Shown: positions 33,150-50,070 of the stretch, in pieces
Layout: the number at the start of each line of letters is the position of its first letter
Position numbering within the stretch: position 1 is the stretch's first letter
Virus record (IMG/VR): IMGVR_UViG_3300045988_170943
Location: 352,001 to 416,000 of that record
Length of the DNA stretch: 64,000 nucleotides
Source: a virus
Strand: one strand, 5' to 3'
Translations under genes and position numbers: made by a program
The notes under the pieces: generated by a model
The model's input: only the letters and a program-made list of their open reading frames with translations
Database searches by the model: none
What the model was told of the DNA's origin: nothing

Positions 33150-33250
33150 ACCTCCCCCAGGTATAGAAACAAACCAAAGACCACTAAACACTACCACAGG
33201 GCACTCGGCGACACTTTGCGCCCTGAAACAAGACAACGGGAGATAAACCA

Positions 33251-33445: not shown

Positions 33446-33593
33446 AGCACCCTAACCACAACCCCTGTACGCATCCGCCTTTCGGCCTGTTCTCAACGAT
33501 CTTCTGAGGGCAGGCCGACATGCTTCATGATAGAATATGTGCGAGAGCAAGAACATCAAGGGCAGCAAGCCCACGCGCACCGAGGAGCCGCAC

Positions 33594-34568
33594 ATGAGCG
33601 ACCAACTCTTCACCAAAGCCCCCTTCATCAGCCATGACGGCCCGGACGCCCAAGGGGTGCGGGCGGAGGTCAAAGTATATACTGGGCACTCAACCATCAA
33701 GGAGTTCGAGGACGGGGAGAAGAGTCTCAAGATCAGTTTCCTGAACCCGAAGTCCAAGTACCTGACTAACGGGTACCTGTGGAAGCGAGACGAGAAACTA
33801 GTCGAGATATTTCAGCGGGCACAGCAAGATGAGACCCCGCTGTGGTTCCGTATCGAGCAGCCAAGGAAGGACGGAATTGACCGGTCTACCCCTATCTCCG
33901 AACTTCTCCCGCCAGGAGACACTAAGGCCGCCCGCGATAACTCTCACCGTCGTGTCGCCGCACTGAAGATCAACGAGGGTGACGAATGGACGTTCAGTTC
34001 TATGGCTCTAACAAACCCGGCCGAAGATCCAGTGGTGGACGGAGTATACAGTGCTCTGAACTACACACCCCCTGCCTCAACTTCCGCTCCAGCAGCCAGC
34101 GACCGGTATGCGTCACAACGTCTTGAGAACCCCCCATATATGACGCTCAACCCGGACGGTACGATCAACCCTGGCGGCCCGCTCGTTGCGTCACTACTGA
34201 GTCTCGCTAACTTCTTGTTCGAGTGGAACCGCGATCATGACGACATATCCTTAAACGAGGGTCAGGTCCGGTATTTGTCCTGCAAGATGCTTGAAATTGC
34301 GAATAGATTGCAACTGATGATCTACCGTGGCGCGATGGTCAAGCCAGACTACTCAATCGGATCCCACACGCGCGCTAAAGCAGCCATTTACGACACAATC
34401 CGTAACTACCATCCGATCACAGCAGAGTCCCTGAAAAGCAAGGATTCGGTTGCTGAGTGGCTACAAAATGTTGAGGAAACAGCAGGAGAATGTTTCGTCT
34501 GGGCTATGAGTATGGCTGAGACGTTCCACCCCAACGCCAGCCATAGCGAAAGCCGCAGCGAGTTGTAA
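33594..34568 (+). CDS. hypothetical protein
   Basis: Start placed at MSDQLFTK, which has a strong RBS gaggag. The ORF track extends to 33537. Confidence 0.45.
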   Translation: MSDQLFTKAPFISHDGPDAQGVRAEVKVYTGHSTIKEFEDGEKSLKISFLNPKSKYLTNGYLWKRDEKLVEIFQRAQQDETPLWFRIEQPRKDGIDRSTPISELLPPGDTKAARDNSHRRVAALKINEGDEWTFSSMALTNPAEDPVVDGVYSALNYTPPASTSAPAASDRYASQRLENPPYMTLNPDGTINPGGPLVASLLSLANFLFEWNRDHDDISLNEGQVRYLSCKMLEIANRLQLMIYRGAMVKPDYSIGSHTRAKAAIYDTIRNYHPITAESLKSKDSVAEWLQNVEETAGECFVWAMSMAETFHPNASHSESRSEL

Positions 34569-34584
34569 ACGTTATCAACTCGGG

Positions 34585-34630
34585 GCGCCCCAGAAAGTTT
34601 TATCGGACTTTCTGGGGCGCTCTTAGTTTT
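34585..34630 (+). terminator. rho-independent terminator
   Basis: 14-bp stem gcgccccagaaagt/actttctggggcgc, followed by tcttagtttt. Confidence 0.6.
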
Positions 34631-34724: not shown

Positions 34725-35027
34725 ATGACATTCGTTGACAACATTCGTACCGTCTTCTCTGCTGATGTTGCGGACGATCCAGATCGTGGTGACTTGGTTC
34801 AGACAATCATCATCACGGCAGGTTTCGCTCTTGCTGGATACCTGATGATTAGCTGGATTTCAACCGCTATCCTCAACAAGGGTGCAGACATTGCCTCCTG
34901 TATCGAGGGCTCCAGTTCGTCGGCTGGCGCTAAGGCTAACAGTGCCGCTTGCGCTAAGAACCACGCATCCGAGAAGTCGAACTCCTTCAGTAAGTCTGAC
35001 GGTTACAAGGGCCGCTACGGGAACTGA
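34725..35027 (+). CDS. small membrane protein, possible Flp/Tad-type pilin-like subunit
   Basis: 100 aa. A charged leader is followed by the hydrophobic segment DLVQTIIITAGFALAGYLMISWISTAI. It sits directly upstream of the Tad-like secretion genes. Confidence 0.3.
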   Translation: MTFVDNIRTVFSADVADDPDRGDLVQTIIITAGFALAGYLMISWISTAILNKGADIASCIEGSSSSAGAKANSAACAKNHASEKSNSFSKSDGYKGRYGN

Positions 35028-35238
35028 CCTAAGCGAACCCGAACTCATCGACTACACAAGAGGGGCACCTGGTTGGTTTTACTGCCACCAGGTGCCCCTC
35101 TTGTTGCAGCAACCTCTCAATAAACACTGTGTCAGCACACCTTCAAAGCACATTAAACAACCAGATATAGAAATAGCCCCTGGGTTTTCGCTGATATTCC
35201 GCCGGTATTCCTGATGTTTTCGCAAGTAGAGGACCGGC

Positions 35239-36147
35239 ATGAACATAGATAATCCAGTGACGCTATCTGTCCTGTTCACACTTTTTGTCGGCCTCATCGT
35301 GTATGACCGTCTCATCCCTAAATCAGGTAGACGGTTCTCTGACGGCACTGGTGACGCTTCCAGGCGCAATCCCTTCCTGAAGTTCGTCACTGCTATGGGT
35401 GACGACATCTACGCGGCCATGCCAGCCTCTCTTGACAAGGGAAGGGAACAGAGACAGTACCCCAGGATCGAGTCGCTACTGAAACGATCCGGCAACCCGT
35501 GGGGGCTGACCCCCAGGGAGTTCGTGTCACTGAAGTTCGTTGCCGGAATCCTCGGGTTTGTCATCAGTTGGCCACTATGGCTGGGACTGAACGCCATGAC
35601 CGGACTCCCATGGTGGGTCGTCGTCATTGTCGTACCAGCGTTCTGCTACATGATCCCCACCATCAAGCACACTGAACTGGCGAAGACACGAGACCTGGAG
35701 TTCAAACGACAGTTGCCAGAGGCCCTGGACCTCATCACCATTACCCTGTCCGGTGGTAGTACTCTATCCCAGGCAATCCGTGACGTCATCCCCACTATGC
35801 AGAAAGGTATCCTCAAGGGTGAGTTCATCAACATGGTGCGTATCATGGACGCTGGAGGTACACTCAAGGAGGCTCTAGACGAGTTCGCCAACCGCGCCCC
35901 CAGTGATGGGATCCTGACATTCGTGCGTTCCGTCCAGTCGGCCGCCGAGGTCAACGCGCCCATGAACGAGATTCTTGAGGCCCGAGCCGAGGCGTCTAGG
36001 CAGGAGTTCTTCGCCCTCGTGCATGAGAAGGCAGCCCAGTTGGAGTCCAAGATCTGGATCATCCTGTCGCCAACCATGCTACCGGCCCTCATCATCATCT
36101 CTGTGGCCCCGTCCGTCAACGCTATCATCGAGATGCTAGGACAGTAA
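35239..36147 (+). CDS. TadC/GspF-domain inner-membrane platform protein
   Basis: N-terminal TM, cytoplasmic GspF-like domain (LDLITITLSGGSTLSQAIRDV...), C-terminal TMs. Confidence 0.5.
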   Translation: MNIDNPVTLSVLFTLFVGLIVYDRLIPKSGRRFSDGTGDASRRNPFLKFVTAMGDDIYAAMPASLDKGREQRQYPRIESLLKRSGNPWGLTPREFVSLKFVAGILGFVISWPLWLGLNAMTGLPWWVVVIVVPAFCYMIPTIKHTELAKTRDLEFKRQLPEALDLITITLSGGSTLSQAIRDVIPTMQKGILKGEFINMVRIMDAGGTLKEALDEFANRAPSDGILTFVRSVQSAAEVNAPMNEILEARAEASRQEFFALVHEKAAQLESKIWIILSPTMLPALIIISVAPSVNAIIEMLGQ

Positions 36148-36216
36148 GACACCACGCCAACCCCACAAAGACTGCAACAACCAGCACAAGGCTACACCAC
36201 TACCACAGGAGCCCAG

Positions 36217-37935
36217 TTGTCACTCATCAGCACACCACTCACCAGCACCAGCAGGCCGGATGCTGGGCGAGCCTCCATGCCTGGCCGACAGCGCATCACC
36301 CGCCCCACAGGAATGGGCCCAAAGCCAGCATTCTTCGCCCAATCTTCAGCGGACATGGCAGACGCCAGCGACCGCATGTTCAGTGACCTCATAGCCGACG
36401 ACGAACTCACCACCAGCCACAACCCCACACAGTACACGACCGGCAACGACCCATACTCCCGCACTCTGGACGCATTTGACAACCGACGCAAGCAAATCAT
36501 CCAGGAAGACCCCTCAGGCGGCATCAAGACCTACTGGTTCATGACAACACGCGACCTCATGGACGCCCCAGCAGACTTCTTTGACAAGTATGCGCCAGCA
36601 GTCGAGGCCGGGATCACATTCGTGCGCAACCGACTCACCGACACCGGCCAGTCCGACCTCGTGAGACAGGCACAGGACCACCCCACAGACGAGAGCAAAC
36701 AGAACCAAGCATTCTACGCAGTGCACTCGCTCGCCTCCGAGTCCCTGGCGAACTCCTCCTGGAGAAACATCCACCGGTCCATCGTCATCAGCCTCATCAT
36801 CGCAGAAGTCATCGGTTTCGGTGTCCTTGACCCACTATGGCGCGACAGCACAGTCACCGAGATCATGTGCAACGGCCCCAAGGACGTGCAGGTCGAGATC
36901 GCCGGTGAGGTCTACAAGGTGCCCTGCCTGACATTCCGGGACAGCAACCACCTCAACGACCTCATTGAACGCCTGTACCGCTCCATTGGTAAAGTCCTGT
37001 CCCAGTCCACCCCTAGAGTCAAGGGGCGCCTACACGACAAGTCCAGAATGTTCGCCGTCCACACATCAGTAGCCCCCGACGGCCCGAACCTCAACATCAG
37101 GCGACACCCCGAAGGTTTCTGGACCCCTGAGGCCATGGTGCATCGCGGGGCGGCCAGCCAGGAAATGATGACCTACATTGGGAACCTCATCCACAAGGGC
37201 GCATCCTGTTTCGTCGTCGGATCCACGTCGTCCGGTAAGACATCCATGTTGAACGCCTTCACCGGGTTCTACGCACCGAACGCCAGGATCCTCACCCTTG
37301 AGGACAACCTGGAGATGAAACCCAACCCGAAAAAGTTCCTCGCTGCCGCCATGGAATGCCGTATCCCCAGCACGACAGACAGTGCGACAGCAGGAACCAG
37401 CATGCGTGACCTCGTGCACGCAGCCATGCAGATGCGACCCAACGCCATCATCGTGGGTGAGGTCACTGACAGCGCCGCCTATGACCTCTGCCAAGCCCTC
37501 AACACCGGCCACATGGGCATGAGCACGTTCCACGCTAACTCATCCCAACTATCCATCACCCGTATCTGCTCTCTCGTATCCCAGTCCGGCCTAACCACCA
37601 TCGAGGGAGCCACAGACCTCGTTGCGGCCGCCTTCGACTTCATCGTCAACGTCCGCCACTTCCCTGTGGACGGCTCCCGCCGCATCGTATCCGTCGATGA
37701 GGTCGGTATGGAACCCATCGAGATCAACGGCCGCCTCACCCTCCCAGTACGCCAGTTGTGGAGGTTCGTTGACGAAGGCACCAACCACGAAGGGAAAGTC
37801 ACAGGCCACTGGGAGCAGGTTGGAGACATCTCCCCTGAGCGCAGACACGCGAAGATGCTTGACCTGGAACGGGACCTGACATGGCCACAGTTGAAGGACC
37901 TGAGCAGCCTACCTGAAGGAGCACTAGAAGCATGA
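36217..37935 (+). CDS. CpaF/TadA-type secretion ATPase (VirB11/GspE superfamily)
   Basis: Walker A GSTSSGKTS, ILTLEDNLEM, an Asp box, a His box (TGHMGMSTFHANS) and IIVGEV. TTG start with RBS aggag. Gln/Pro-rich N-terminal extension. Confidence 0.7.
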   Translation: MSLISTPLTSTSRPDAGRASMPGRQRITRPTGMGPKPAFFAQSSADMADASDRMFSDLIADDELTTSHNPTQYTTGNDPYSRTLDAFDNRRKQIIQEDPSGGIKTYWFMTTRDLMDAPADFFDKYAPAVEAGITFVRNRLTDTGQSDLVRQAQDHPTDESKQNQAFYAVHSLASESLANSSWRNIHRSIVISLIIAEVIGFGVLDPLWRDSTVTEIMCNGPKDVQVEIAGEVYKVPCLTFRDSNHLNDLIERLYRSIGKVLSQSTPRVKGRLHDKSRMFAVHTSVAPDGPNLNIRRHPEGFWTPEAMVHRGAASQEMMTYIGNLIHKGASCFVVGSTSSGKTSMLNAFTGFYAPNARILTLEDNLEMKPNPKKFLAAAMECRIPSTTDSATAGTSMRDLVHAAMQMRPNAIIVGEVTDSAAYDLCQALNTGHMGMSTFHANSSQLSITRICSLVSQSGLTTIEGATDLVAAAFDFIVNVRHFPVDGSRRIVSVDEVGMEPIEINGRLTLPVRQLWRFVDEGTNHEGKVTGHWEQVGDISPERRHAKMLDLERDLTWPQLKDLSSLPEGALEA

Positions 37936-38891
37936 CCATCTCAACTATCTTCCCCTACCTGGTGGCGTTGGGCCTGACCACCTCCATCGGCATCATCGGG
38001 CTCATCGTCTATCTCGTGTGGCGCACCAGCCACAACGATGAAGAGTACGACTCCCAGTTGGCTGAACTTCTCAGCGACGACGTGGAAAGCGAACTGGGCA
38101 ACTCCTCCACGAACGTCACCTACTGGTCCAGATGGTGTGACTACTGGTCCCAGACGCTCCGTGGTGCGGGCGTGGACCGGTACTCCGTTGACGCCACCAC
38201 AGCGGGCCGAGATGTCACCGTACTTCTGGCTACGATTGGTGTGATTGTCGGCGTCATCGCCAACAACATAATCCTGGGGGTGATCGCCACCGTCGTGGCT
38301 GGTACGGGGCTCTCCATGCTCATGAGGTACCGCTACAACAACAAGAACGAGGATCTGAACTTGCAGATCCCTGGGTTCCTGTACTCCCTGAAGGCAAACA
38401 TCCAGGCTGCGGACACGAACGAGCGGGCACTGCTGAAAATCATCCCGTCCATCCCTTCCCCCTTGTATGATGACCTGAAGGTTGCTGAGTCAGTTCTCCA
38501 GTCTGGTGACACGTTCAAGGAGGCGATGGAGACAATGAGCGCGAAAACCACGTCCAGGGATCTTCAGTTCCTCTGCGCGTGCATGATCCAGGCGTCCGCC
38601 AGCGGCTCTAGCATGGTCACCCAGATTGACAGCATCCAAAGGGTCCTTGAATCTCGTCGTAAAGTATCCGATGAGATCAACCGGTCTGTGAAAGCGGTAC
38701 AGCCAGCCATCTGGCTCGCCTCCGTCATTATCCCAGCCCTGTTCCTGGGCTCTTACTTCAGTGACTCTGCCGCACAGGGTTTCTGGTTCGTAACCCCCAT
38801 GTCATGGGCGGCGCTAGCCTTAACGGCCATCCTGTACGCTATTGGCCTGGTGATGACGAAGCGGCAGGTTGACAAGATCAGAAACATGTGA
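37932..38891 (+). CDS. TadB/GspF-domain inner-membrane platform protein (second copy)
   Basis: N-terminal TMs, central GspF-like domain, C-terminal TMs. Start overlaps the CpaF stop. Confidence 0.5.
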   Translation: MTISTIFPYLVALGLTTSIGIIGLIVYLVWRTSHNDEEYDSQLAELLSDDVESELGNSSTNVTYWSRWCDYWSQTLRGAGVDRYSVDATTAGRDVTVLLATIGVIVGVIANNIILGVIATVVAGTGLSMLMRYRYNNKNEDLNLQIPGFLYSLKANIQAADTNERALLKIIPSIPSPLYDDLKVAESVLQSGDTFKEAMETMSAKTTSRDLQFLCACMIQASASGSSMVTQIDSIQRVLESRRKVSDEINRSVKAVQPAIWLASVIIPALFLGSYFSDSAAQGFWFVTPMSWAALALTAILYAIGLVMTKRQVDKIRNM

Positions 38892-39086
38892 CCTACCCCC
38901 AGCCATCAACATGTGTTGAACCTGAGTGGTTAATACAAACACCTCAGCCGTTGCTCTTACAGACAAGGCTGGGGTGTTTCTGTTGCCTCTTTGTAGGCAG
39001 AATAAGGGCGTCGATATGTGTGCGCACGACATCACGTGCACAACTCTACAGACATGCGAACTTCACACTAAAGAACGGACACAACT

Positions 39087-39704
39087 ATGACAACAGGTGT
39101 TGGCAAAAACAGGGTAGGGACCCACAGGAGACTGGAGTTCACCGTGGGACAGAAAAGCATCTTCAACACCAACATGAACATCAAGCACTACATGCAGAAA
39201 GCAAAACTGGTTGACACTATCCGCGCCATGGGAGCCAAAGCCGGTGCAGAAGCACACCCAGACAGAGAGACGGTAGAAGCCAGGCTTGATGCGTTACGAC
39301 AGGAGCGACGCCTCGCTGCACGTAAGACCAGCACCATGAAGAAAATGATGAAACGAGGCGCCAGTCAGGAGGAGATCGACAAGGAGATGCAGGAGATTAC
39401 CGAGTCCCTGTCGCCCTCCAAGCCCAGTAGTCGCATCCAGGCAACCCCACTATTCACCACATTCAAGATAACCATGACCGTCCACCCGCCGACACGCAGA
39501 CGACTGGACCCACCCAACCTGTCCCCCACCCTCAAAGCCCTCGTAGACGGGCTCACAGACGCCTGCTGGTGGGACGACGACGACTACCGGCACCTTGTTG
39601 AGACCTCATTCCGTTACGGCGGCCTATCTGGTACCCCCGGAGAGTGGAGAATCGTCCTGGACGTGGAAGAAGTAGACCCCAGCGGATACGTCACCAGCAA
39701 CTAG
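39087..39704 (+). CDS. RusA-like Holliday-junction resolvase domain protein
   Basis: C-terminal half aligns with RusA: RRRLDPPNL..LKALVDGLTDACWWDDDDY versus [29 protein letters not shown]. Confidence 0.45.
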   Translation: MTTGVGKNRVGTHRRLEFTVGQKSIFNTNMNIKHYMQKAKLVDTIRAMGAKAGAEAHPDRETVEARLDALRQERRLAARKTSTMKKMMKRGASQEEIDKEMQEITESLSPSKPSSRIQATPLFTTFKITMTVHPPTRRRLDPPNLSPTLKALVDGLTDACWWDDDDYRHLVETSFRYGGLSGTPGEWRIVLDVEEVDPSGYVTSN

Positions 39705-39857
39705 AGTCAAAACACCTACCCCAAGAAACAGGGATGCAACCCACCCACACTTCCAAGGCAGGGGATAGATTATCGACTGCTGCCAGACGGAAGGATATTG
39801 AAAACCTATGAGAAACTACCACGATTCGCTTACTAGATGTGACGAAAGAAGGTCGCC

Positions 39858-40313
39858 ATGGGTGGAATAGTCGTCGCAAACTTCACGAACATGTTCAAGC
39901 GACGCATCCTTCTGTACTCGCTCGGTGATCTTAGGCTCAACGCCCCCATATCCCTGAAGAAGGTCGGATACATCATCTTCTTCATTGTCATATACACGGC
40001 ACCCATCATCTACTTCAACGGGATCGTGCTCAAACCATGGTTCCTGTTACTAGTGTTTGTGCCGCCGCTCCTCCTAGGTAACTACGCGGCCGAACCGATC
40101 TGGGCAGGAAGAAACCTCCTGGACTTCACCACAGTGTACATAAAGTTCGCCACCTCCCCAAAGTACTGGTGCGACCTGAAAGCATGCGACGACCTCATGG
40201 TCAACCAGAAGGACAAGAGTGGTACCAGTGAGCCAGTCCACTACGAGATCTGGGTAAGCCGACGTCGCGAGATCGCTGAACTGAAAGCACTCTACGCCGA
40301 AGAGAACCTGTAA
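39858..40313 (+). CDS. small membrane protein
   Basis: 151 aa with two hydrophobic segments. Confidence 0.3.
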   Translation: MGGIVVANFTNMFKRRILLYSLGDLRLNAPISLKKVGYIIFFIVIYTAPIIYFNGIVLKPWFLLLVFVPPLLLGNYAAEPIWAGRNLLDFTTVYIKFATSPKYWCDLKACDDLMVNQKDKSGTSEPVHYEIWVSRRREIAELKALYAEENL

Positions 40314-40380
40314 TAGCCTCCAGGGGTCTCAAAACTTTCATCGCACACTACCACACTGACTGCATGGAGCAAACACTTAC

Positions 40381-41586
40381 ATGGCATACAAGTATAACTC
40401 ATCACTGTTTCTGGGCGAGACGCTTGGGGGAAAACCCAGCCCAGTGTTCTTCGATCCGCACACATGCATCCTGAATAACCGACCGCCCACGACAGTCATC
40501 ACAGGCGGCCCTGGCTCCGGAAAGACCTACATGCTGTTGAACCTGGTGGCCCAGTCTGCCATCCTCGGCAAGGCGTGCGTCTTTTTGGACCCTAAAGGTG
40601 ACGCCCTCGGTCTTCAGGCGCTTTCCAAGGATCTCGGCAACCTGAAGTTCTGGAACCTCGCCGGACGAGGACAGAAAGGCATCCTAGACCCGTTCCAGAT
40701 GCCCATTGATCATGAGAGCCAGCGGCTCGAACTCATCATCAATACTGTGGAGATGTTCGTCGGAAACATCACTGAAGACCAGAGAACAAGGCTCGGAGCC
40801 ATCGTTGAAGACGTCATGCGCGAGCAGGTACCATCCCTGCTGCGTGTCGTTGAAGTCATGATCATGCACCGAGAGAGAGACGTCCGTAACCTTGGGAACC
40901 GGCTGAGCCTGATCTCAAAGATGAAGTTCGCCAACTTGTGCTTCGCCCCTGGCCGTAAGGGATTCAAGCCGCTCAGCCTGGACAGTGGTGTCACCATCGT
41001 CACCATGCCCGGCCTGAAACTCACAGTAGACAGCAAGGACGGCATGTCGGGTGAGGAGCGAATCTCAGCCACCATATTCTTCCTTCTGACCAGCATGATC
41101 AACGGGATGCTCTACTCCTCTGACGTGTCTATGCGCAAGATCCTGATCATCGACGAGGCGTGGGCAATCGCTGGTAACTCTGCTGGGTCCAAGGTCATTA
41201 AGGCGGTAGCAAAACTGGGGCGATCCAAGAACATGGCTGTCATACTCGCCAGCCAGAACCAGAGTGACCTCATGGGGGAGGACATTGATACCACCATATC
41301 CACACGATTCGCGTTCGCTACCGACTACAAGGAGGCCGCGAACATCACAAAGGCTATGCGACTCCCCACAGGGCAAGGGTTCGAACAAATCCTGACCTCT
41401 CTGAGCCCGGGCGAGTGCCTGATGGAGGAGAGTACCAGCGATGATGGGCGCAGTCGTTACTCCACAATGAAAGCCGTTGTCATCTCCCCCAGGTGGGACG
41501 AGGCTTTCAGAACCAACCCTGAAGACGTGCGCGCAAGAGAAAAGAAGAGACGCAAACAGGCGGCAGCAAAAAAGAATCCTACCTAA
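40381..41586 (+). CDS. P-loop NTPase, VirB4/HerA (DUF87)-like
   Basis: Walker A GGPGSGKTY and Walker B ILIIDEAWAI, about 400 aa. Confidence 0.45.
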   Translation: MAYKYNSSLFLGETLGGKPSPVFFDPHTCILNNRPPTTVITGGPGSGKTYMLLNLVAQSAILGKACVFLDPKGDALGLQALSKDLGNLKFWNLAGRGQKGILDPFQMPIDHESQRLELIINTVEMFVGNITEDQRTRLGAIVEDVMREQVPSLLRVVEVMIMHRERDVRNLGNRLSLISKMKFANLCFAPGRKGFKPLSLDSGVTIVTMPGLKLTVDSKDGMSGEERISATIFFLLTSMINGMLYSSDVSMRKILIIDEAWAIAGNSAGSKVIKAVAKLGRSKNMAVILASQNQSDLMGEDIDTTISTRFAFATDYKEAANITKAMRLPTGQGFEQILTSLSPGECLMEESTSDDGRSRYSTMKAVVISPRWDEAFRTNPEDVRAREKKRRKQAAAKKNPT

Positions 41587-41612
41587 AAATAGGATCGACA
41601 TAACTGCTACAC

Positions 41613-41652
41613 AATCCTGAGGAATCCCCGATATTCCTCAGGATTTTATTTC
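41613..41652 (+). terminator. rho-independent terminator
   Basis: 13-bp stem aatcctgaggaat/attcctcaggatt with loop ccccgat, followed by ttttattt. Confidence 0.6.
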
Positions 41653-41677
41653 GCCTGACACAGAAGGAAGCGCCCCG

Positions 41678-42523
41678 ATGGCCGCAATCAGCAAAGTGAA
41701 CAGAAGGAAGAAGACTAACCGTTTTCTCACTGGAATGGTAGTCGTCGTACTAGCGCTCATACTGGTCGGCTCATCCATGATCATGCGTAAGTTCTTCGAG
41801 ACAGAAACCTACTACACGTTGAAACAGGACATCCCAGCACACACCCAGATCACCCCGGACATGCTGGAGCCAAAACAAGCACCCACCGGGTCTATCCCCT
41901 TCGAAAATTTAGTCACCCTCGCAAAAGTCCAATCAGACGACCCTAAGGATGCAGTATTCTCCTCAGTTGCCCTCAAGGCCGGGGACATGGTGCCAAATTC
42001 AGTCGTTACCACCGGAAGTGAAGACCTCAAAAAGCAAATCCCTGAGGGCTGGGTCATCACCAACTTCAGTGTCAGCGCAGACAACGCCGTCGGCGGGCGC
42101 ATCAAGAACGGTTCATACTTTGACATCCTTGTCGCCACATCAGATGGCGCATTCTACCCGTTCCTCAACGTGAAGGCCCTCGACACCACTGTTGACCTGT
42201 CCAACGCCTCCTCATCTGACGCTGTTGATACTGAGGAGGCGCACGCCGGGCAGACCACGCAGTACACGGTTGGGCTCACACCGGAGAACGCATCCAAACT
42301 CCAGTCCATCATGAGCCAGTACAACGGCAACGTCAAACTGGTTCTGTCCAATGGTGTCAGCGACCCTGCCACTCACCAGCCGACAGGATCATTCGCCGGT
42401 AACGCCCCCGCCCCACTGTCAGTCAGCCCTGACACCGACAATGGCGGCCAGGCCCCAGCATCCCAGCAGCAGGAAAAGCCCTCCGCGTCAGGGAATCAAG
42501 ACCAGCGGGCCGAGAACAAGTAA
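41678..42523 (+). CDS. CpaB/RcpC-like pilus assembly protein (N-terminal TM plus SAF-like domain)
   Basis: Membrane anchor after a K/R-rich start. Domain with GGRIKNGSYFDILVATSDG, like the CpaB beta-clip. Confidence 0.5.
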   Translation: MAAISKVNRRKKTNRFLTGMVVVVLALILVGSSMIMRKFFETETYYTLKQDIPAHTQITPDMLEPKQAPTGSIPFENLVTLAKVQSDDPKDAVFSSVALKAGDMVPNSVVTTGSEDLKKQIPEGWVITNFSVSADNAVGGRIKNGSYFDILVATSDGAFYPFLNVKALDTTVDLSNASSSDAVDTEEAHAGQTTQYTVGLTPENASKLQSIMSQYNGNVKLVLSNGVSDPATHQPTGSFAGNAPAPLSVSPDTDNGGQAPASQQQEKPSASGNQDQRAENK

Positions 42524-42547
42524 CTAGGGATCTCCTGAGTCGATATA

Positions 42548-42597
42548 GTAAGGGTACCGAAAGTTGCAAAACAATCGGTACCCTTACACTTTTCTAC
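42548..42597 (+). terminator. hairpin terminator
   Basis: 12-bp stem gtaagggtaccg/cggtacccttac, followed by acttttct. Confidence 0.45.
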
Positions 42598-42649
42598 CAC
42601 CAAATGTCAACACCCCAATAGTGTTGATCGTTGAAAGCAAGGGATACTA

Positions 42650-44077
42650 TTGGCTACTAGTATTATGCGCCCAAGAGCCATGTTTGTTGGACCAGAGCAG
42701 GTCTCAAACGTCATCAGGGACCACGCATGCCCCGACTGGGACTGGTACCGGGTAGACACACTACAGGACGTTATAGCGGGATCACGAGACGGCGACGACT
42801 ACTCCGACATCAACATGATCATTCTTGTTGACAGAATGTTCGAGAAGGAGTTCAACCCGGAACGCGAGTTCGAGACCATCGTCGCCTCATTCGGCACCAG
42901 CAAAATCGTAACTATCCTCCAATACAACAGCAGTCTCCAGTACAACATTGAGAACTCAGTGGCCGCCTATGCGAAAGACAAGGGGATCGGCGATGTCTCC
43001 ATGAACTTCGTTGGAGCGGACTACGAATCGGCCATACCCCGCATCATCCACAACTACGTCAACGACCCCTATGCTGACGACTGGAACAAGGCAGTCATCA
43101 GCAACCGTGTCACCATCGACGAGAACGGCCAGGTTGTCAGCATCGCAGCCGACGAAACTACCGGTGAGGAGTGGGACGACGGCAGCAACTACTTCGAGGA
43201 GCAGGTAGACGACACCCAGTACCTCGGCCAGATCATCGCCGTCACCTCCAGCAAAGGCGGGTCAGGTAAGTCCACCGTCGCCGTCACTCTAGCCTCCTAC
43301 CTGGCACACTCGTCCATGAGGTCAGTGGAGACCGGGGCGGTTGACAGGCCCCTGAAAGTCGCTATCCTCGACCTAGACATTGAAGACGGCCAGATCGGGT
43401 TCATTGCGGGCAGCATCCAGCCGACCATCCTGAACATGCGCACCCGGGGTATCTCGCAAGCCGCGTTTGAGGACACTGTTATCAAGAGCAAGCGGCTTGG
43501 TGTTGACCTCATCCTAGCCCCCAAGCGGCCACGCTCCAGTGCTGACACGCCACCTCAGTTCTACCGCGAGGTGATCGACTTCCTCAAGCAGCGGTACGAT
43601 TACGTGATTCTGGACACTTCTGTACGCTACATGGATCCCCTTCTGGAGCAGGTGGCGTACCCCATGGCTGACGCCATAGTTTTTGTTACCGACATTGTGA
43701 TCCAGTCCGTGATGTCTATGACACGGTGGGTGCAGGAGGTGACCTGGCCGGTAGAGAAGAACGGCATGGGGATCCCGGCATCCAAGATCGGTCTCGTGGT
43801 CAATAAGGCCATCGCTGATGTGCACATGAACGGGACTCGTATCGCTAAAGCCGCTCCGGGCGTCGCCGTCGTTTCTGTGATCCCCAATAATGCGAAACTG
43901 ATGGCTCACGCCGCTAACCTTCAGGCAATGCAGGTTGTTTTGAATCATCCAGAGATCCGCAAGTCATACAAGCGAATAGCAGATGCCATCATGGGTAAAC
44001 GTTACGACAAGCACCTAGTGGATACCACCAAGGGCGAACGCTACAAGTTAAGTGACGACTTCAAGGTCACCACATAA
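42650..44077 (+). CDS. CpaE/TadZ-like ParA/MinD-family ATPase with N-terminal receiver-like domain
   Basis: Deviant Walker A IAVTSSKGGSGKSTVAV with a ParA-like fold. The N-terminal ~180 aa resemble a pseudo-receiver. TTG start is uncertain. Confidence 0.55.
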   Translation: MATSIMRPRAMFVGPEQVSNVIRDHACPDWDWYRVDTLQDVIAGSRDGDDYSDINMIILVDRMFEKEFNPEREFETIVASFGTSKIVTILQYNSSLQYNIENSVAAYAKDKGIGDVSMNFVGADYESAIPRIIHNYVNDPYADDWNKAVISNRVTIDENGQVVSIAADETTGEEWDDGSNYFEEQVDDTQYLGQIIAVTSSKGGSGKSTVAVTLASYLAHSSMRSVETGAVDRPLKVAILDLDIEDGQIGFIAGSIQPTILNMRTRGISQAAFEDTVIKSKRLGVDLILAPKRPRSSADTPPQFYREVIDFLKQRYDYVILDTSVRYMDPLLEQVAYPMADAIVFVTDIVIQSVMSMTRWVQEVTWPVEKNGMGIPASKIGLVVNKAIADVHMNGTRIAKAAPGVAVVSVIPNNAKLMAHAANLQAMQVVLNHPEIRKSYKRIADAIMGKRYDKHLVDTTKGERYKLSDDFKVTT

Positions 44078-44461
44078 TAGAAGTAGCGCAACATGTAAGA
44101 CCTTCCCGCCCCTTTAGTGTGCGGCCTGGAACTCTCTTCTGCTGGCATGGTGCCTGTCTGGTGAAGATACCATGCGAAGCGGCAAGTAATGTTGCCTTGT
44201 GTGTTGAGGTGAACATGCGGCAGGAGAGCCAGCCAGGGCTGTAGTGAGGGGTTAGGGAACATGAAGGGTCTGGCCGGGATGCCTAGTGGTAGGGGCTCCC
44301 GGCCAGACCTGTTTCTTCGTGTAACAAGGTGCTAAATGTTGAGGCTTCGCTGATTGTGTGCCTTAAACTAGAGCGTTATCACACAACGGCTTGTGCTGTT
44401 TTCTGTTGCGTTGGTGTGCTCAACTTAGACGCCATGTCATGATCGCACCCCAAGGTAGACG

Positions 44462-44508
44462 AGTACTGCCTGCAATTACACTTCAATGCCGTCATTGCAG
44501 GCAGTACT
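44462..44508. terminator. bidirectional hairpin between convergent cpaE-like and pilT-like genes
   Basis: Perfect 15-bp inverted repeat agtactgcctgcaat/attgcaggcagtact with a 17-nt loop. Confidence 0.45.
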
Positions 44509-44523
44509 TCAGCCAGGACCGGC

Positions 44524-47385
44524 CTATGCGATAGTGATCTTGTCCTTACCCAGTAGACCCTTGAAGTATACGAGGTCGGCGGCGTGCCTCATACCCTCCT
44601 CCACAGTGCACCTCCCCTGCTCTACAGCATTAACGATCTGCCGCTCAATAGTCAGGTCATTGTCGCGCATATAGTCCTCAATGCCGTGGTCGTCGCCCGC
44701 GCCGATCATTTCCTGTACTTCACGAGTAATCTCAAGGACAGAGAACAGGGCGAACCGGCTCTTACCGTCAACAGTCTTCAAGAGTTCCTGGTTAGCGAGC
44801 CCACGAATGTTTGTCTGAAGCGTTGACAGTATACGCCTCTGATCCTCACCATCATACAGCGACTTGATACGGTTCAACGTGACGGCAGGCGTGTTTGAGT
44901 GGATCGTCGTCATCGTGAGGTGCCCTGACTCGGCTGCACGAAGAAACTCGTCAACCTCTTCCTGGTCTCGAACCTCACCCACCAGAATCGTGTCCGGGTC
45001 CTCACGCATAGCAGCCTTCAGCGCGTTCGAGAACGAGTGTGTGTCACTGCCCACCTCACGTGGAGTCAGCAAAGTAATGCCATCGTCAGGGTAGATGTAC
45101 TCGATGGGCTTCTCAATAGTGACGATCCTCTGGTTACTGTTCTTCTGAAGGTTACGGATCAGAGATGCGAACGTTGTCGTGTTATGGGTTGGCACATAGT
45201 CCCTTGTGCACAGGAACAGGTGTGACGGGGAGTCCACCTCAAGGCACCAGAACTCCGACTGGGAGGCGTGCACCTCCTCCATGTACTCGATCTCAACAAT
45301 GTTCCCCCCGTCTATTGTGGCGCTTGCGTGCGAGCCTCTAAAGTCATCGTTCAGGTAATCCCGCACACCAGTAATGCTCAAACGGTCACCCATAGTCTCA
45401 GTGGCGTGCATCCCCAGTGAGCGAGCCACACGAGCCACACCCTCCCTGTGCTCATCATCCGGGATGCTGACTGTCGTGTCGCTGGAGTCTGCTGGCCCCT
45501 GAACCAGTAGTGCCCCCAACAGCATCAGCCGATCCGACACGCTCCAGGAGACCGCCTCAGCAAGAACCTCACGTACCCCATCCTGCCCCTCTGTAAGGCC
45601 CGTGACAGCGGCCGCAAGCGCCACTGGCAACACGGTAGGGGCGGGGGGCTCAGGTACCTCCACAGGCCCCCTGAGTCCCCTGATAACGGGGTTGTAGCCG
45701 AACCTCTGGCACACCTCGAACATTTGCTGCGTCGTCACCGTGCGCGGCCCCTCAACGCGGCCCATCAGTGATTCCTGGGAGTGCAACTCCAGCAGGTGGG
45801 CGCACGACTTACCGACCAGGATCCCGTCACCAGTGTCACGGAACGTCCGAGAAAGAACACCAGCCACCATGTCTGCCATGTCGCCCGTGAGCCCAGCCCG
45901 GCGGGTGATCTCGTGGGCAGGCAGCCGTTCACCGTCTCTGGCAGCAACAACCATGTCCAGGAGGGCAGCAACAGACCTCTTCGGCAGGATGATACGGCAG
46001 TAATTGTCACAAGGGAACTCCGCGACCCACAGGTGGTTCCCCCCAGCCAGGACAGTCTCACTAAGGCCACGGAACTTGATGTGGAAGAACCTCTCCGACC
46101 CTCCGGGGTGCTTTCTCACCACTTTGCATGTGCTGCCGTTCTCGTCATACACGATGTCACCGACCTGCACGTCCCCAAGCCTGATGAACCCGCCAGGATA
46201 GTTCGGGCCAGGTATCAACGTGTCCTCGTGAAGATCCTTACCGGAGCCAGTAATACCCCCCAGGATGATGCCGCCCTTACCGAACTTCGTCCACTCAATC
46301 AGGCGCGGGTCCACGTTCAGTTCCTCAGGAGACGGGATGACATCACTGATGATACGGAACGTCATAGCATTGTGCCCAAGAGTGCGCGCAACATTCAACC
46401 TGGTGCGCCTCCCCGCGTGCATACTGGAACGCAACTCATAAGAGGTGTCCAGTTCCCAGTGCTCATGATAGTCAGTCTGGTTATCCTTGGTGACAATGTC
46501 CATGAAGATACGGCTCGTGACATCATAGGGGATAGGCCCGAACTTCTCGTCGCGCACAATGTCTCCATTGACCCTGTACGCGATACGCTTGTCTGGGTCG
46601 ATATGGACGTCAGAAGCACCCATGTCGATACCTTGTGCGATTACGGCGTCGATGTCGAAGCCTTTAAACGGATCCTCTTCCGCCTCCTCCTCTTCAATGC
46701 CGATCCCGTCTATGACGTCAAGAACCCCATCCAATGGGTCATCGTCATAATCGTCGTCATAGTCCTCATCATCGTACCCGGCGTAAGGGTCCTCATACTC
46801 TGGATACTCATCATCCATAGGGGAGAACGGGTCCTCATCCTCCCCGTCAACACTCCCCTCACTGGTGTCGCCCGCGTCCATGTTGTCACTGTCAGCAGCA
46901 ATGTCTGCACTGACGGCAACATAGTCTGCGTCACCATAGAGATCACCGTCACCACTACTTGCAGACAGGCCGCTAGCAGCCCCCAGGGCCTCAGGAGCAC
47001 TACCTGCACTGTACTCAGAAACACCAAAATCTGTGACCGGTTCATCACCGTCAGCACCCAAACTAGCGTTCACAGGATCATCATAGTCGCCGTCGAGCAC
47101 GCCATCATACTCAACACCTTCGTCGCTATCGCCCCACAGGCGCTCACTGTACCCATTATCTGGAACCTGGGTGGGCGCGTTCATATAGTCGGCGTCAACA
47201 GGTGTCGTTACCACGTCATCCTCGCCCGGCTCATCATAGCCGCCAGGAATAGTAGTCTCCTCCATGTGCGGCTGCGTGACCGGGGCGGCATGACCGGGCA
47301 CATACTCATCATCCCCGTCACCCTGAAGGAACGGGTTGTAGTCCTCATCCCAGGCCTCAGCAGTAAGGTCAATACGGTCAGACAT
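44524..47385 (-). CDS. PilT/PilU-like secretion ATPase with acidic N-terminal extension, interrupted in its P-loop by a class 3 intein
   Basis: Exteins carry ASDVHIDP...RVNGDI (PilT N-terminus), GGITGSGK joined to TTTFASLI (Walker A restored), RIVTIEKPIEY, EDPDTILVGEVRD and AAESGHLTMTTIHSN. An Asp/Glu-rich N-terminal region of about 250 aa precedes these. Confidence 0.7.
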   Translation of the reverse strand: MSDRIDLTAEAWDEDYNPFLQGDGDDEYVPGHAAPVTQPHMEETTIPGGYDEPGEDDVVTTPVDADYMNAPTQVPDNGYSERLWGDSDEGVEYDGVLDGDYDDPVNASLGADGDEPVTDFGVSEYSAGSAPEALGAASGLSASSGDGDLYGDADYVAVSADIAADSDNMDAGDTSEGSVDGEDEDPFSPMDDEYPEYEDPYAGYDDEDYDDDYDDDPLDGVLDVIDGIGIEEEEAEEDPFKGFDIDAVIAQGIDMGASDVHIDPDKRIAYRVNGDIVRDEKFGPIPYDVTSRIFMDIVTKDNQTDYHEHWELDTSYELRSSMHAGRRTRLNVARTLGHNAMTFRIISDVIPSPEELNVDPRLIEWTKFGKGGIILGGITGSGKDLHEDTLIPGPNYPGGFIRLGDVQVGDIVYDENGSTCKVVRKHPGGSERFFHIKFRGLSETVLAGGNHLWVAEFPCDNYCRIILPKRSVAALLDMVVAARDGERLPAHEITRRAGLTGDMADMVAGVLSRTFRDTGDGILVGKSCAHLLELHSQESLMGRVEGPRTVTTQQMFEVCQRFGYNPVIRGLRGPVEVPEPPAPTVLPVALAAAVTGLTEGQDGVREVLAEAVSWSVSDRLMLLGALLVQGPADSSDTTVSIPDDEHREGVARVARSLGMHATETMGDRLSITGVRDYLNDDFRGSHASATIDGGNIVEIEYMEEVHASQSEFWCLEVDSPSHLFLCTRDYVPTHNTTTFASLIRNLQKNSNQRIVTIEKPIEYIYPDDGITLLTPREVGSDTHSFSNALKAAMREDPDTILVGEVRDQEEVDEFLRAAESGHLTMTTIHSNTPAVTLNRIKSLYDGEDQRRILSTLQTNIRGLANQELLKTVDGKSRFALFSVLEITREVQEMIGAGDDHGIEDYMRDNDLTIERQIVNAVEQGRCTVEEGMRHAADLVYFKGLLGKDKITIA
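45181..46236 (-). other. class 3 intein (352 aa, WCT signature, Asp at position 1, large central insert)
   Basis: Block A DLHEDTLI (GAT codon verified on the reverse complement); block B GGNHLW (Trp at B12); block F EFWCLEVDSPSHLFLC (Cys at F4); block G YVPTHN with +1 Thr (Thr at G5). A central ~200 aa may be a degenerate endonuclease. Confidence 0.65.
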
Positions 47386-47658: not shown

Positions 47659-50070
47659 CTACACGGCGACCTGAGTCAGTTCCAAAGGCTTACCATCCAT
47701 ACCCATAATGCGCTCAACCTTCACCGCATCCCTGAGGAAGGCCGCCCCCGACTTGAAGAACCCCCTGTCCCGAGGATTAGGTTCACGCTTCGCCCGGTTC
47801 TCAAACTCTACAGCCACAGACTCCACACACTCACTGATGAACCTGCCCAAAGAGTCAGACACCACCAGGTAGCGGACCTCCCCATACGCGAACCACCCCG
47901 ACCAGGCATAGTTTCTGAGCACCTTCTTCAACGCGCTACCCTGTTTACGAGTCAACTCGATCTCATATGCGATAGACCTAGCCCGACCATTCTTGTCCCG
48001 CACATCATAACGCATAATAAGGTCTGGCTGATGGTACGACGAGTACTTATCCTTCTCATCATCCTTCGCGCACGGTACCCACAGCATCGGATACTTCTCC
48101 ATGATGCCGTCACGTAACCCACTCGACAAGTCCTGGTATGCGTCAAGCATCTGCTCACGATACCTCACCAGACGTTCATCTCTCGACAAGGTGACACCAG
48201 AGCAGTTGCGCTCCATCCACCGCTCATTCACAAAGAACGCGGGCATAAACCCATGCAACTTACACTCGCGGGCAACAGTGTACGAAACCATAGCATTATG
48301 TGCGCCACGCTCAGTCATACGCGCACCCTTACGGGCACTACGCACCTTAATGTTGTCAAAATCCACGCCAGACCTGTTATCCCGGAGCACCTGAAGACCC
48401 TTGCTCTTCAACCGGTAAATACTCTTACCACCAAGGAACACGGTATCACTGATAATCAGGCCCATCTCCGCCAAACCAAGAAGACGCTTCGGCGCAGACT
48501 TCGGAGCCTTCAAACCCAGAATCGTCTGCACACTCCTAGCAGTAGCGGAACCAGACACAGCAATCAGTTCCAGCACCAACAAATCCTTCTGAGTGATCTT
48601 TGACCGATGATACTTCTTTCTCGGATTCCGCTTCTTCCTACCTGAGACAGTCTCGCCACGACGCTGCCTGTGCCGCAGATCCGCCTCCTGAGCCTTACTA
48701 CGCACAGGGAACTTCACATCAGGAGCGAACTCCTGCCGCATGTACTCGCCAGTGTCAGAAGGAAGCGGCTGCAACCCCTGACCAGGCTTCTTCGGCGGAG
48801 GACGGTACCCCTTCATAAACGGCTTATTCTCAGGATTCAGGATATGCGGGTCAGTGACACCAACCAGATTCGGGTCAACTGGTTTCTTAGGTCGAGGCCG
48901 CTTAGGCTTCTGATACTGAACCACATACTTGCGATCCTCCAACACGTTCACATCATCAGTACCCAGACCAGCAGGCTCAGGACGCGACTCGCCACCACTG
49001 AGAGACAAGCCCCCGCCAGTAGACACACCGCCGGATCGCCCCCCGTCGTTTACTCCACTACGAGATTGCGCACCATTAGCATCTCCTCGACCACTACTGT
49101 CACGACGGAACCCACCCGAACCAAGACCAGCACCCACAGTGAGACCAGCAGTTACAGCAGGTTCCTGTGGGCTTCCCTGAACGCCACCACGACCATCACC
49201 CGCGCCACTGCCCGCAGCGCGCACACGACCCGAACCTTGCACCTCACCATCAGGAGAAACGGGCCGCCTATCAGACGTTGAGCGGCCACCCGAGGCTACA
49301 CTACCAGTGGGACGACGGCCTTCCCCCAACTGCGGGCGACCACCGCCCTGAACCCCACCTACTGGCCTCTCATGATGTATAGCAGGCCTCGAAGCGCCTT
49401 CGCCCCCACCCGAGGTGCCCACGCCAGCACCATTACCAGCAGTCCCATGAGGAGCAGTGCGACGCTCAGGGTAAGAGTGACGAGAACTTCCCCCGTCCCC
49501 TACAACACCACCCTGAGCCCTCACGGGGCGGGCACCGCCAGCAGGAGATGCAGGGCGAGAGCCACCTCCCATGCCAGAGGTAACACCCTGCCTGACAACA
49601 GGTCCACCACCAGCCATACGACTTCCGCCACCCTGTGACTGTCGGACACCCATTGGGGCGACACCACCATGCGGTAGATCGCGGCCACGCACACTGTCAC
49701 CCTTCACCACACCACGGGCGCTGTCGTTACCCCCAGGGTTGGACCTACCAAGAGACCCCACACCCCTAGGATGACCGCCTCCCCCACGCGACGGCACCAC
49801 ACCAACACCAGCCCCAGTAGGTCGCCCAGCGCCTCTTGCGTCACCCTGTGGCCGGGTGGGGGAAGCCTCGTCGTCACTGAGCAGGTCACTCATCATGTCA
49901 TCGAGAAGATCATGCTCCACCTCAGCAGGCACGCCAACAGTACTACGTGCCGGGCCGCCATTAGTGCCAGAGACAGTCGGGCGCATGGGGCGGCTCACCC
50001 GGCTACGGTCACGGAAACTATTACGTGCGCCATCACGGCCAGGCTCATCAGTCACAAGCACACCCTCCAA
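47659..50070 (-). CDS. DNA-binding protein with ~430-aa Gly/Arg/Pro/Ser-rich disordered N-terminus and a C-terminal wHTH plus replication-relaxation-like domain
   Basis: C-terminal ~370 aa are well-composed (LLVLELIAVSGSATARSVQTIL...). The N-terminal low-complexity part could be over-called. Confidence 0.35.
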   Translation of the reverse strand: MEGVLVTDEPGRDGARNSFRDRSRVSRPMRPTVSGTNGGPARSTVGVPAEVEHDLLDDMMSDLLSDDEASPTRPQGDARGAGRPTGAGVGVVPSRGGGGHPRGVGSLGRSNPGGNDSARGVVKGDSVRGRDLPHGGVAPMGVRQSQGGGSRMAGGGPVVRQGVTSGMGGGSRPASPAGGARPVRAQGGVVGDGGSSRHSYPERRTAPHGTAGNGAGVGTSGGGEGASRPAIHHERPVGGVQGGGRPQLGEGRRPTGSVASGGRSTSDRRPVSPDGEVQGSGRVRAAGSGAGDGRGGVQGSPQEPAVTAGLTVGAGLGSGGFRRDSSGRGDANGAQSRSGVNDGGRSGGVSTGGGLSLSGGESRPEPAGLGTDDVNVLEDRKYVVQYQKPKRPRPKKPVDPNLVGVTDPHILNPENKPFMKGYRPPPKKPGQGLQPLPSDTGEYMRQEFAPDVKFPVRSKAQEADLRHRQRRGETVSGRKKRNPRKKYHRSKITQKDLLVLELIAVSGSATARSVQTILGLKAPKSAPKRLLGLAEMGLIISDTVFLGGKSIYRLKSKGLQVLRDNRSGVDFDNIKVRSARKGARMTERGAHNAMVSYTVARECKLHGFMPAFFVNERWMERNCSGVTLSRDERLVRYREQMLDAYQDLSSGLRDGIMEKYPMLWVPCAKDDEKDKYSSYHQPDLIMRYDVRDKNGRARSIAYEIELTRKQGSALKKVLRNYAWSGWFAYGEVRYLVVSDSLGRFISECVESVAVEFENRAKREPNPRDRGFFKSGAAFLRDAVKVERIMGMDGKPLELTQVAV

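Follow-up and report, generated by a model that had tools for sequence, protein, structure and literature searches.

Almost all that is known of the huge phages and giant extrachromosomal elements in the human microbiome comes from sequence. Among the latter, Inocles are intracellular, plasmid-like elements of oral Streptococcus (Kiguchi et al. 2025, PMC12340149). They are circular, 245-395 kb in length and 24-32% in G+C content (GC), and all of them carry VirB4, VirD4 and the InoC marker, a protein of about 454 amino acids (aa) with PF13814 (PMC12340149). Gyrase, DNA polymerase III (PolIII), an exonuclease and a bifunctional penicillin-binding protein (PBP) are conserved among them, and they are rich in cell-surface genes (PMC12340149). 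Their describers call transfer 'possible', noting VirB4 and VirD4, and the paper makes no mention of Tad, pilus, T2SSE or PilT, the word 'pilus' occurring 0 times (PMC12340149). In this study, we analysed a gene block at positions 34725-47385 of a 64,000-nucleotide stretch of DNA (hereafter the window; positions 352,001 to 416,000 of IMG/VR virus record IMGVR_UViG_3300045988_170943), running from the start of a pilin-like open reading frame (ORF) to the end of a PilT-like ORF. The block appears to be a hybrid, in which a Tad-type filament set is interleaved, within one same-strand block, with the VirB3/VirB4-type pair of Gram-positive conjugation. We propose, with a probability of roughly 0.45, that it serves as a conjugation-like apparatus for cell-to-cell DNA transfer using a Tad-type filament.

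Inocles may be the closest described relatives of the element; they were compared by published description only, and the link is circumstantial. The likeness consists of a human oral source, a 418-kb contig, a VirB4-like protein, homologues (430-478 aa) of its Replic_Relax-like protein, a group of low-GC relatives (L014-L018, GC 0.28-0.31, IMG metagenome assemblies) and a class A PBP in L014. Unlike the Inocles, the element has a GC of 0.55, which is not of Streptococcus type, and VirD4 was not found in the region searched, which held only an FtsK-like protein.

Nine consecutive plus-strand genes face two convergent minus-strand genes at this locus (Table 1). The searches for components covered about 94 kb, including the window and 10 kb on each side, or about one quarter of the genome, and made use of Pfam, PHROG and NCBIfam profiles, precomputed Pfam lists and PDB sequences. 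Every ORF named in a preliminary description of this DNA, which had been made from the letters alone, was present in its place. Profile searches bore out the families assigned there to the ATPases, the platform proteins, the CpaB-like protein and the ParA protein with a receiver-like domain, and the T2SSE, T2SSF, CpaB and ParA comparisons returned related rather than unrelated families. A chimeric contig, which a GC break at the edges of the module would have betrayed, was rejected because GC is flat over both block edges (0.53-0.59) and because the same genes stand in identical order on contigs from four independent samples, one of them labelled human oral metagenome and one represented by a contig of 418,686 bp. 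The block is real and the contig is not chimeric at the locus.

The filament genes resemble Tad/Flp systems, in particular the actinobacterial 'helicase/secretion neighbourhood' loci (TIGR03819/TIGR03815), with which the block shares a CpaF/TadA ATPase, two T2SSF proteins and a small single-helix pilin-like protein whose leader ends in Gly, and probably also a CpaB-like protein and a receiver plus MinD ATPase (the TadZ architecture). The TadA-like ATPase matched CpaF structures over residues 179-554 (1.6e-50, 8rjf), and its best NCBIfam match was TIGR03819, the 'TadA family conjugal transfer-associated ATPase' (9.8e-50, below the equivalog cut-off). Its Walker A, Asp box, Walker B and His box are intact and are kept in six lineages. 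The two platform proteins are paralogues that show weak reciprocal cross-matches; the TadB-like protein is 29-68% identical across relatives, and the TadC-like protein falls slightly under the T2SSF cut-off (23.5 against 25.2 bits). The CpaB-like protein, with a predicted N-terminal transmembrane (TM) segment and no match among PDB sequences, aligned to TIGR03177 at positions 31-241 of 262. In the ParA-like protein, which has a canonical KGGSGKS motif, about 190 residues precede the MinD/ParA domain and form a (beta-alpha)5 domain in the AlphaFold model, so the predicted architecture is of the TadZ/CpaE type. The TadB/TadC pair, the CpaF/TadA ATPase and a ParA-type ATPase with a receiver-like domain were correctly recognised in the preliminary description; the CpaB-like assignment stands as to family, its RcpC and TIGR03177 scores both lying below the curated cut-offs. 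The block differs from Tad loci in having a dedicated PilT-type ATPase, in the insertion of a TcpE/VirB4-like pair and RusA, and in being a core module of a giant mobile replicon. Tad pili normally use a bifunctional CpaF (PMC6920026).

The second part of the hybrid resembles Gram-positive type IV secretion systems (T4SS; pCW3 Tcp-type, mating-pair formation classes FA/FATA), in which a TcpE-family protein is encoded directly upstream of the AAA_10/VirB4/TcpF ATPase. The TcpE-family protein of the window scored 37.9 bits against a cut-off of 29.9, and its gene sits immediately 5' of the AAA_10 gene in all relatives. Both this gene and the truncation of the VirB4-like ATPase had been overlooked in the preliminary description, which had called the latter a VirB4/HerA-like NTPase; the family is upheld, and the match extends to the C-terminal ATPase half only. 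The ATPase matched TcpF (8e-24, model positions 466-784 of 813 only), VirB4 (2.8e-13) and CedB (1.5e-11) among the NCBIfam models. A search of a 5.8-billion-protein collection gave 158 homologues (E<1e-5); the 120 listed are all 376-415 aa long, and many of these lie on contigs of 0.2-0.83 Mb. Walker A and Walker B are invariant in 26 sequences of the family. In plasmids and genomes, the nearest homologous sequences each make up half of a full-length protein (annotated lengths of 685 and 847 aa, and a frame of about 940 codons in L023). In PLSDB, the matches, at no more than 32% identity, were to full-length VirB4 proteins encoded in ordinary Gram-positive T4SS clusters that lack Tad genes, and the best match among 185,579 GTDB species genomes was likewise a full-length VirB4 (32% identity). 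Such clusters are found on pBCXO1 (TcpC, TcpE, AAA_10, a membrane protein and a lysozyme-like protein) and on a Nocardiopsis plasmid (TcpE-AAA_10 plus SLT and MinD/ParA genes). The likeness extends to the nearby MinD/ParA gene of the actinobacterial plasmid and may include an FtsK-type translocase and a relaxase-like protein of the MobC superfamily on the window element. In contrast to these systems, the VirB4-like protein is about 400 aa long rather than 685-847 aa, TcpC/VirB8, VirB6 and a hydrolase are not encoded nearby in the window, and a complete T2SSE/T2SSF set is added.

The neighbourhoods of relatives were fetched and searched with the window proteins. A single order recurred: RadA, a proline-rich protein, the 343-aa protein, the pilin-like, TadB-like, TadA-like and TadC-like proteins, RusA, TcpE, AAA_10, the CpaB-like and the ParA-like protein, followed by the convergent PilT-like and Replic_Relax-like pair where the fetched stretch extends far enough. 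The full order is kept in L004 (GC 0.36, 309-kb contig), L084 (GC 0.48, 390 kb, with relatives on many contigs of 500-541 kb), L011 (GC 0.54, 828 kb), L013 (GC 0.43, 437 kb) and L014 (GC 0.28, 244 kb), with protein identities to the window of 30-74%. The elements that share this synteny range in GC from 0.28 to 0.56, on contigs of 0.2-0.83 Mb. L009 (GC 0.44) has a reduced form with the pilin-like protein, the TadB-like protein, a 698-aa protein, TcpE and AAA_10, and L015-L018 (GC 0.30-0.31) have only the 343-aa protein, TcpE, AAA_10 and the ParA-like protein at the locus. The preliminary description had considered a cargo island; the synteny over this GC range and the flat GC of the window led us to reject it. 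The block is a conserved core module of a clade of giant elements (0.2-0.8 Mb). Its intact catalytic motifs, and an order that holds over 30-74% identity and GC 0.28-0.56, point to a function essential to the element. The combination of genes was absent from all cultured phages, PLSDB plasmids and GTDB species genomes searched.

The convergent ATPase belongs to the PilT/PilU family. It matched PilT structures (3.6e-40). At the N terminus it has an acidic extension of about 240 aa, and its Walker A motif is split by a 352-aa intein (aa 384-735). Conceptual splicing restores GITGSGKTT, and the spliced form aligns end to end with Aquifex PilT (residues 6-353, 2.2e-48), as expected of the intein-bearing PilT-like ATPase that had been described as converging on the block. 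Walker A, Walker B, the Asp box and the His box are kept in four lineages. AIRNLIRE is a motif typical of PilT; none was recognisable by eye in this protein. The PilT-like orthologues of L011 and L013 are free of inteins, that of L014 has one at the same site, and the TadA-like orthologues of L004 and L013 have inteins in the P-loop. All of these occupy the same site, GSGK|T. They lack Cys1, their first residue being Asp, Ala or Glu, and show His-x-Trp in block B, Cys in block F and a THN|T end, which is the class 3 'WCT' pattern. The shared site in paralogous ATPases suggests intein homing between paralogues. That P-loop inteins occur in one or the other T2SSE ATPase, depending on the lineage, fits the view that these genes are indispensable.

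Table 1. Features of the locus, its neighbourhood and its relatives. Positions refer to the window unless another sequence is named.
Feature	Position	Strand	Basis or remark
Pilin-like protein, 100 aa	34725-35027	+	Architecture only
TadB-like platform protein, T2SSF, 302 aa, 4 TM	35239-36147	+	PF00482 9.6e-12, above cut-off
CpaF/TadA-type secretion ATPase, 572 aa	36217-37935	+	T2SSE 6e-27
TadC-like second platform protein, 319 aa, 4 TM	37932-38891	+	PF00482 5.6e-5
RusA-like Holliday-junction resolvase	39087-39704	+	phrog_34 1.9e-18
TcpE-family (VirB3-like) small membrane protein, 2 TM	39858-40313	+	PF12648 2.6e-9
VirB4/TcpF-type ATPase, C-terminal ATPase domain only, 401 aa	40381-41586	+	AAA_10 2.9e-41
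Hairpin directly 3' of VirB4-like gene	41613-41645		13-bp stem
CpaB/RcpC-like single-pass membrane protein	41678-42523	+	RcpC 6.6e-6; TIGR03177 CpaB 2.9e-11
Receiver-like domain plus MinD/ParA ATPase	42650-44077	+	AAA_31/CbiA/MinD
PilT/PilU-family ATPase, 953 aa, split by intein	44524-47385	-	TIGR01420 5e-72
Intein-bearing PilT-like gene, L014	15935-18253	-	
Intein-bearing TadA-like gene, L004	7478-10687	+	
Intein-bearing TadA-like gene, L013	4883-7696	+	
Divergent Replic_Relax-domain protein	47659-50070	-	Transitive profile evidence
Hairpin 5' of pilin-like gene	34582-34623		19-bp stem, terminator-like
Soluble 343-aa protein	33537-34568	+	Conserved, always just upstream of block
Small two-helix membrane protein, 64 aa	33251-33445	+	Two hydrophobic segments
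FtsK/SpoIIIE-domain protein, 364 aa	20861-21955	+	PF01580; FtsK NF007615 1.5e-13
Artefactual 867-aa ORF	19352-21955	+	
DUF7487 gene	within 18974-21955	-	
Five-TM protein, 179 aa	14821-15360		Imp-YgjV
tRNA island	1-8585		With 10 kb upstream (L082)
PolIII alpha PHP/N-terminal fragment	10101-11597		
TnpB gene	11708-13249	-	
TnpB gene	25090-26619	-	
TnpB gene, L019	15573-17120		
MT-A70 methyltransferase	58532-59320		
SecA and SecY-like gene, L016	16178-19659		
Class A PBP, L014	20-2269		
Region with full Tad locus, MW495066.1 (L083)	14546-33571		

In the proposed DNA transfer, the Tad-like filament would capture a partner cell and pull it in, perhaps through retraction by the PilT-like motor. It would in this respect be comparable to the type IV pili that IncI plasmids encode. 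The TcpE/VirB4-like pair, perhaps with the FtsK-like protein, would then energise DNA translocation at the TadB/TadC platform. The Replic_Relax protein might process the DNA, and the ParA-type ATPase might position the machine or its DNA substrate. Several observations argue for transfer. All three marker classes of conjugative elements, that is, VirB4, a relaxase-superfamily protein and an FtsK-type translocase, appear to be present in divergent form, and TcpE adjoins AAA_10 in bona fide Gram-positive T4SS clusters. In L017, a TrbL/VirB6-like protein (6.6e-5), found in no other relative, is encoded 6 kb downstream of the TcpE/AAA_10 pair. The best match of the TadA-like ATPase is to a 'conjugal transfer-associated' clade, and the PilT-like ATPase gave further matches to TraJ (1.4e-29) and DotB (2.6e-27), both ATPases of conjugation, PilT-like ATPases being part of some conjugation systems. 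There is also the precedent of the type IV pilus on the conjugative plasmid TP114, which promotes mating (PMC9045228), and the report that all Inocles have VirB4, VirD4 and the PF13814 marker points the same way. DNA transfer of a phage-plasmid had been among the roles suggested for the block, and we consider it a sensible reading. Pilus-bearing conjugative elements (the IncI1 R64 thin pilus, IncI2 TP114, PAPI-1) likewise bring a type IV filament together with T4SS-type parts. Those are type IVb pili of Proteobacteria with secretins and a full T4SS, whereas the window has a Tad-like filament, probably a monoderm host and a minimal T4SS part on a 0.4-Mb phage-like replicon.

A number of findings weigh against DNA transfer. 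The N-terminal domain of all characterised VirB4 proteins is missing from the VirB4-like ATPase. VirB6/TcpH, VirB8/TcpC and a peptidoglycan hydrolase were not found in the window or its 10-kb flanks. The FtsK-like protein, a possible coupling or translocase partner, has no predicted TM segment and lies 13 kb upstream of the block. The Replic_Relax assignment is transitive, and the protein could equally be a replication initiator (PMC3424549). The 100-aa protein is a candidate pilin by architecture only: a leader of about 22 aa ending in DRG is followed by DLVQT and a single hydrophobic helix (predicted TM segment, residues 24-42), and an alignment of six orthologues shows a small C-terminal part with two conserved Cys. 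Its leader Gly is not invariant, being Ala in L013. The protein lies outside Flp_Fap, as it gave no Flp_Fap, Pfam, PHROG or NCBIfam match even at E<=10, and it lacks the G/XXXXEY signature of Flp pilins, Glu5-Tyr6 being absent. No prepilin peptidase (TadV/CpaA, Peptidase_A24) was found in the window and the 10 kb on each side, by Pfam or by our own scans, or beside the module in relatives. A 179-aa five-TM protein (Table 1) was considered as TadV and rejected, since it belongs to Imp-YgjV. Likewise, TadE/TadF, TadD and the secretin RcpA were missing from the Pfam lists for the window and flanks, and TadG was not found in the sampled region. The description of the block as a near-complete Tad machine was therefore too strong, for about 94 kb contain no prepilin peptidase, Flp-family match, TadE/F or secretin. 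The host is probably monoderm, in which case the lack of a secretin would be no surprise. Finally, if the element makes virions, a second route of transfer would be unexpected.

The Tad-like components are the part best supported by sequence, and the block could be a Tad-type adhesive pilus displayed by the host for aggregation, biofilm formation or oral colonisation, with the VirB4-like pair, the PilT-like protein and the Replic_Relax protein as unrelated neighbours. The richness of Inocles in cell-surface genes would fit this role. So would the strong hairpins that flank the segment from the pilin-like gene through AAA_10 (Table 1), which set an apparent sub-structure and may divide the block into sub-units. 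We nevertheless regard an adhesive pilus as unlikely. TcpE and AAA_10 lie between TadC/RusA and CpaB/ParA in every lineage with the full module, and a core position amid replication genes would be unusual for a conversion trait. Moreover, TcpE, AAA_10 and ParA are kept in L015-L018, which have no local Tad genes, so that the T4SS-like pair seems to be the more conserved part.

The same trio of most conserved genes, the setting of the block among replication and recombination genes and the ParB-like proteins among the neighbours of relatives would suit a membrane-anchored segregation or replication-factory system, in which ParA-type and VirB4-like ATPases and membrane proteins serve a very large replicon. 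This seems highly improbable: the block encodes CpaF, PilT, a pair of T2SSF proteins and pilin-like and CpaB-like proteins, all of families dedicated to filament machines, and no known segregation system uses them.

In archaeal Ups pili with Ced DNA import and in the ComB system of Helicobacter pylori, a filament machine, a VirB4-family ATPase and small membrane proteins move DNA, the two machines being encoded separately on the chromosome. These systems belong to other lineages and show no detectable orthology to the block beyond the P-loop region. By analogy, the filament and a VirB4/CedB-like motor might import DNA in a competence-like manner, with RadA and RusA recombining it for repair, recombination or nucleotides. 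RadA is encoded just upstream, and RusA, which the preliminary description had rightly identified and placed merely nearby, lies inside the block, a position conserved in L004, L011, L013, L014 and L084. A PilT-type retraction motor would be suitable, the AAA_10 protein matches the CedB DNA-import model, and Tad pili are reported to be required for transformation of Micrococcus luteus (PMC4322843). However, the CedB match is confined to the Walker B region, with TcpF and VirB4 scoring better, and the window yielded neither a ComEC/ComEA-like channel nor a DNA receptor. Large phages, too, have RadA and RusA as ordinary genes for replication and recombination. We therefore consider DNA uptake quite improbable.

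The element might instead be a true huge phage, whose block serves the infection cycle by superinfection exclusion via host pili or secretion, or by exit of the genome or particle across the Gram-positive envelope. Close and distant relatives are listed as viral contigs in IMG/VR, and the window and its upstream flank hold a jumbo-phage-like set comprising 13 transfer RNAs (tRNAs), a transfer-messenger RNA (tmRNA), a CCA-adding enzyme, Ro60, NrdD, PolIII alpha, clamp loader, GyrA, dCMP deaminase, GIY-YIG and HNH endonucleases, inteins and TnpB. The phage-like character given to the genome in the preliminary description rests on this repertoire of replication, tRNA and homing-endonuclease genes together with the IMG/VR listing. 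No head, tail, portal or terminase family was detected by PHROG among 54 unannotated proteins of the window, its flanks and eight relatives, or in the precomputed Pfam lists, a sample of about one quarter of the genome in which divergent virion proteins may also have escaped, as they often do, from the profiles. A phage collection gave no match by megablast and only four weak matches to AAA_10 (<25% identity), of which the one annotated is a 'conjugative transposon protein'. Searches of phages by tblastn with TadA, AAA_10, RadA and the 343-aa protein returned only unannotated fecal contigs or nothing, and the matches are likely to reflect conjugative elements or bacterial contamination. No mention of Tad or pilus modules was found in the papers on huge phages that were consulted. 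Exclusion functions, in addition, are rarely core genes across such different hosts. Taken together, a block that serves a phage infection cycle is distinctly unlikely, and 'phage-like' is unproven, the low-GC relatives resembling the plasmid-like oral Inocles.

Two labels in the databases were rejected as evidence for phages. The record named 'Microcystis phage MaAM05' (MW495066.1) has a CpaF match, around which the ribosomal-protein genes rplU and rpmA, together with thiL, ispD and ruvA, accompany a full Tad locus with a secretin (Table 1), and at least this stretch looks like bacterial chromosome. The label 'Caudoviricetes sp.' belongs to unrelated contigs of about 33 kb and not to the giant ones. 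These contigs (L094-L097 in our set, so labelled in NCBI) carry a 38%-identical Replic_Relax-like gene, and a giant contig of 374 kb carries both versions of the gene (IMGVR_UViG_3300006292_000168 was among the sequences compared). The contigs of about 33 kb could be a satellite or a second element with the same initiator/relaxase family.

The block is a concrete and testable candidate for the transfer route of giant elements. It also unites, in an unusual natural chimera, the type IV filament superfamily with that of type IV secretion, and its VirB4 would work minus the N-terminal domain. The wider proposal that giant elements of 0.2-0.8 Mb propagate mainly, or in addition to virions, by a hitherto undescribed functional hybrid of a retractile Tad filament, a minimal VirB3/VirB4 core and a MobC-like nuclease is doubtful at present. 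If true, it would define a new class of conjugative virus-like mega-replicons in Gram-positive hosts of very different GC, a widespread clade now catalogued as huge phages or, as with the Inocles, left unclassified. Truncated AAA_10, TcpE and the receiver-ParA protein provide a marker set for finding the whole clade. If the elements also make virions, viral and conjugative lifestyles would be combined at the scale of a fraction of a megabase.

The Replic_Relax-like protein is encoded by an 803-aa ORF beside the PilT-like gene, with which it also pairs in L011, L013 and L084. Its domain, a winged helix plus PD-(D/E)XK, lies in the C-terminal 330 aa or so; the N-terminal half is a low-complexity, Gly/Arg-rich region, gene callers give lengths from 305 to 798 aa, and the AlphaFold model was unusable (predicted local distance difference test score 49). 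The window protein had no direct Pfam match, PF13814 included, and tblastn against plasmids was also unsuccessful. A profile built from the C-terminal family recovered 112 proteins among 1.84 billion representatives. PF13814 was present in 21 of 50 remote homologues scanned (best 8.4e-11), the top remote match passing the gathering score, and weak matches (E 0.015) were seen in the L014 and L100 orthologues. An invariant D..ExE..K pattern runs through the family. PF13814 is a PD-(D/E)XK family (PMC3424549) and represents the MobC relaxase superfamily in CONJscan (PMC5357655). A replication-relaxation-like neighbour, as first described, is thus upheld by transitive profile evidence only. By contig name, there was no overlap between L015-L018 and the carriers of this gene.

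Upstream of the block, the 343-aa protein has homologues in L004, L011, L013 and L014-L018 and no Pfam or PHROG match. Its gene is followed by the terminator-like hairpin and is probably a separate transcription unit. The 64-aa membrane protein also lacks a Pfam match; positional homologues of 62-75 aa occur in L011, L084, L004 and L013, and it is possibly an accessory component. The 867-aa plus-strand ORF that overlaps the FtsK-like gene is an artefact, gene callers giving the 364-aa FtsK-like protein and an opposite-strand DUF7487 gene.

Among the relatives, SecA and a SecY-like gene lie close to the TcpE-AAA_10-ParA genes of L016, and the class A PBP gene of L014 is 2 kb from the module; the giant elements thus have their own genes for envelope and export functions. 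L011, a contig of JGI 3300062451, is the largest that carries the module (828,236 bp), and to our knowledge no published phage genome reaches this length. The contig may represent a genuine element of 0.8 Mb, or else an assembly concatemer formed from a genome about 414 kb long.

The tRNA island, with 13 tRNAs and a tmRNA with the tag ANSDNFALAA, is flanked by Ro60/TROVE, the CCA-adding enzyme, two GIY-YIG endonucleases, dCMP deaminase and a MazG-like protein. Three TnpB (Cas12f1-like TNB) genes lie in the window or just outside it, one of them in L019 (Table 1). A PolIII alpha PHP/N-terminal fragment precedes one of the three, which interrupts the region there, and another forms a pair with a resolvase. 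As IS200/IS605-type insertions, they agree with the 'insertion sequence' trait described for Inocles. From 50000 to 64000 of the window, GC skew rises to +0.50 and AT skew falls to -0.60, and this part contains only small ORFs without family matches, except for an MT-A70 methyltransferase.

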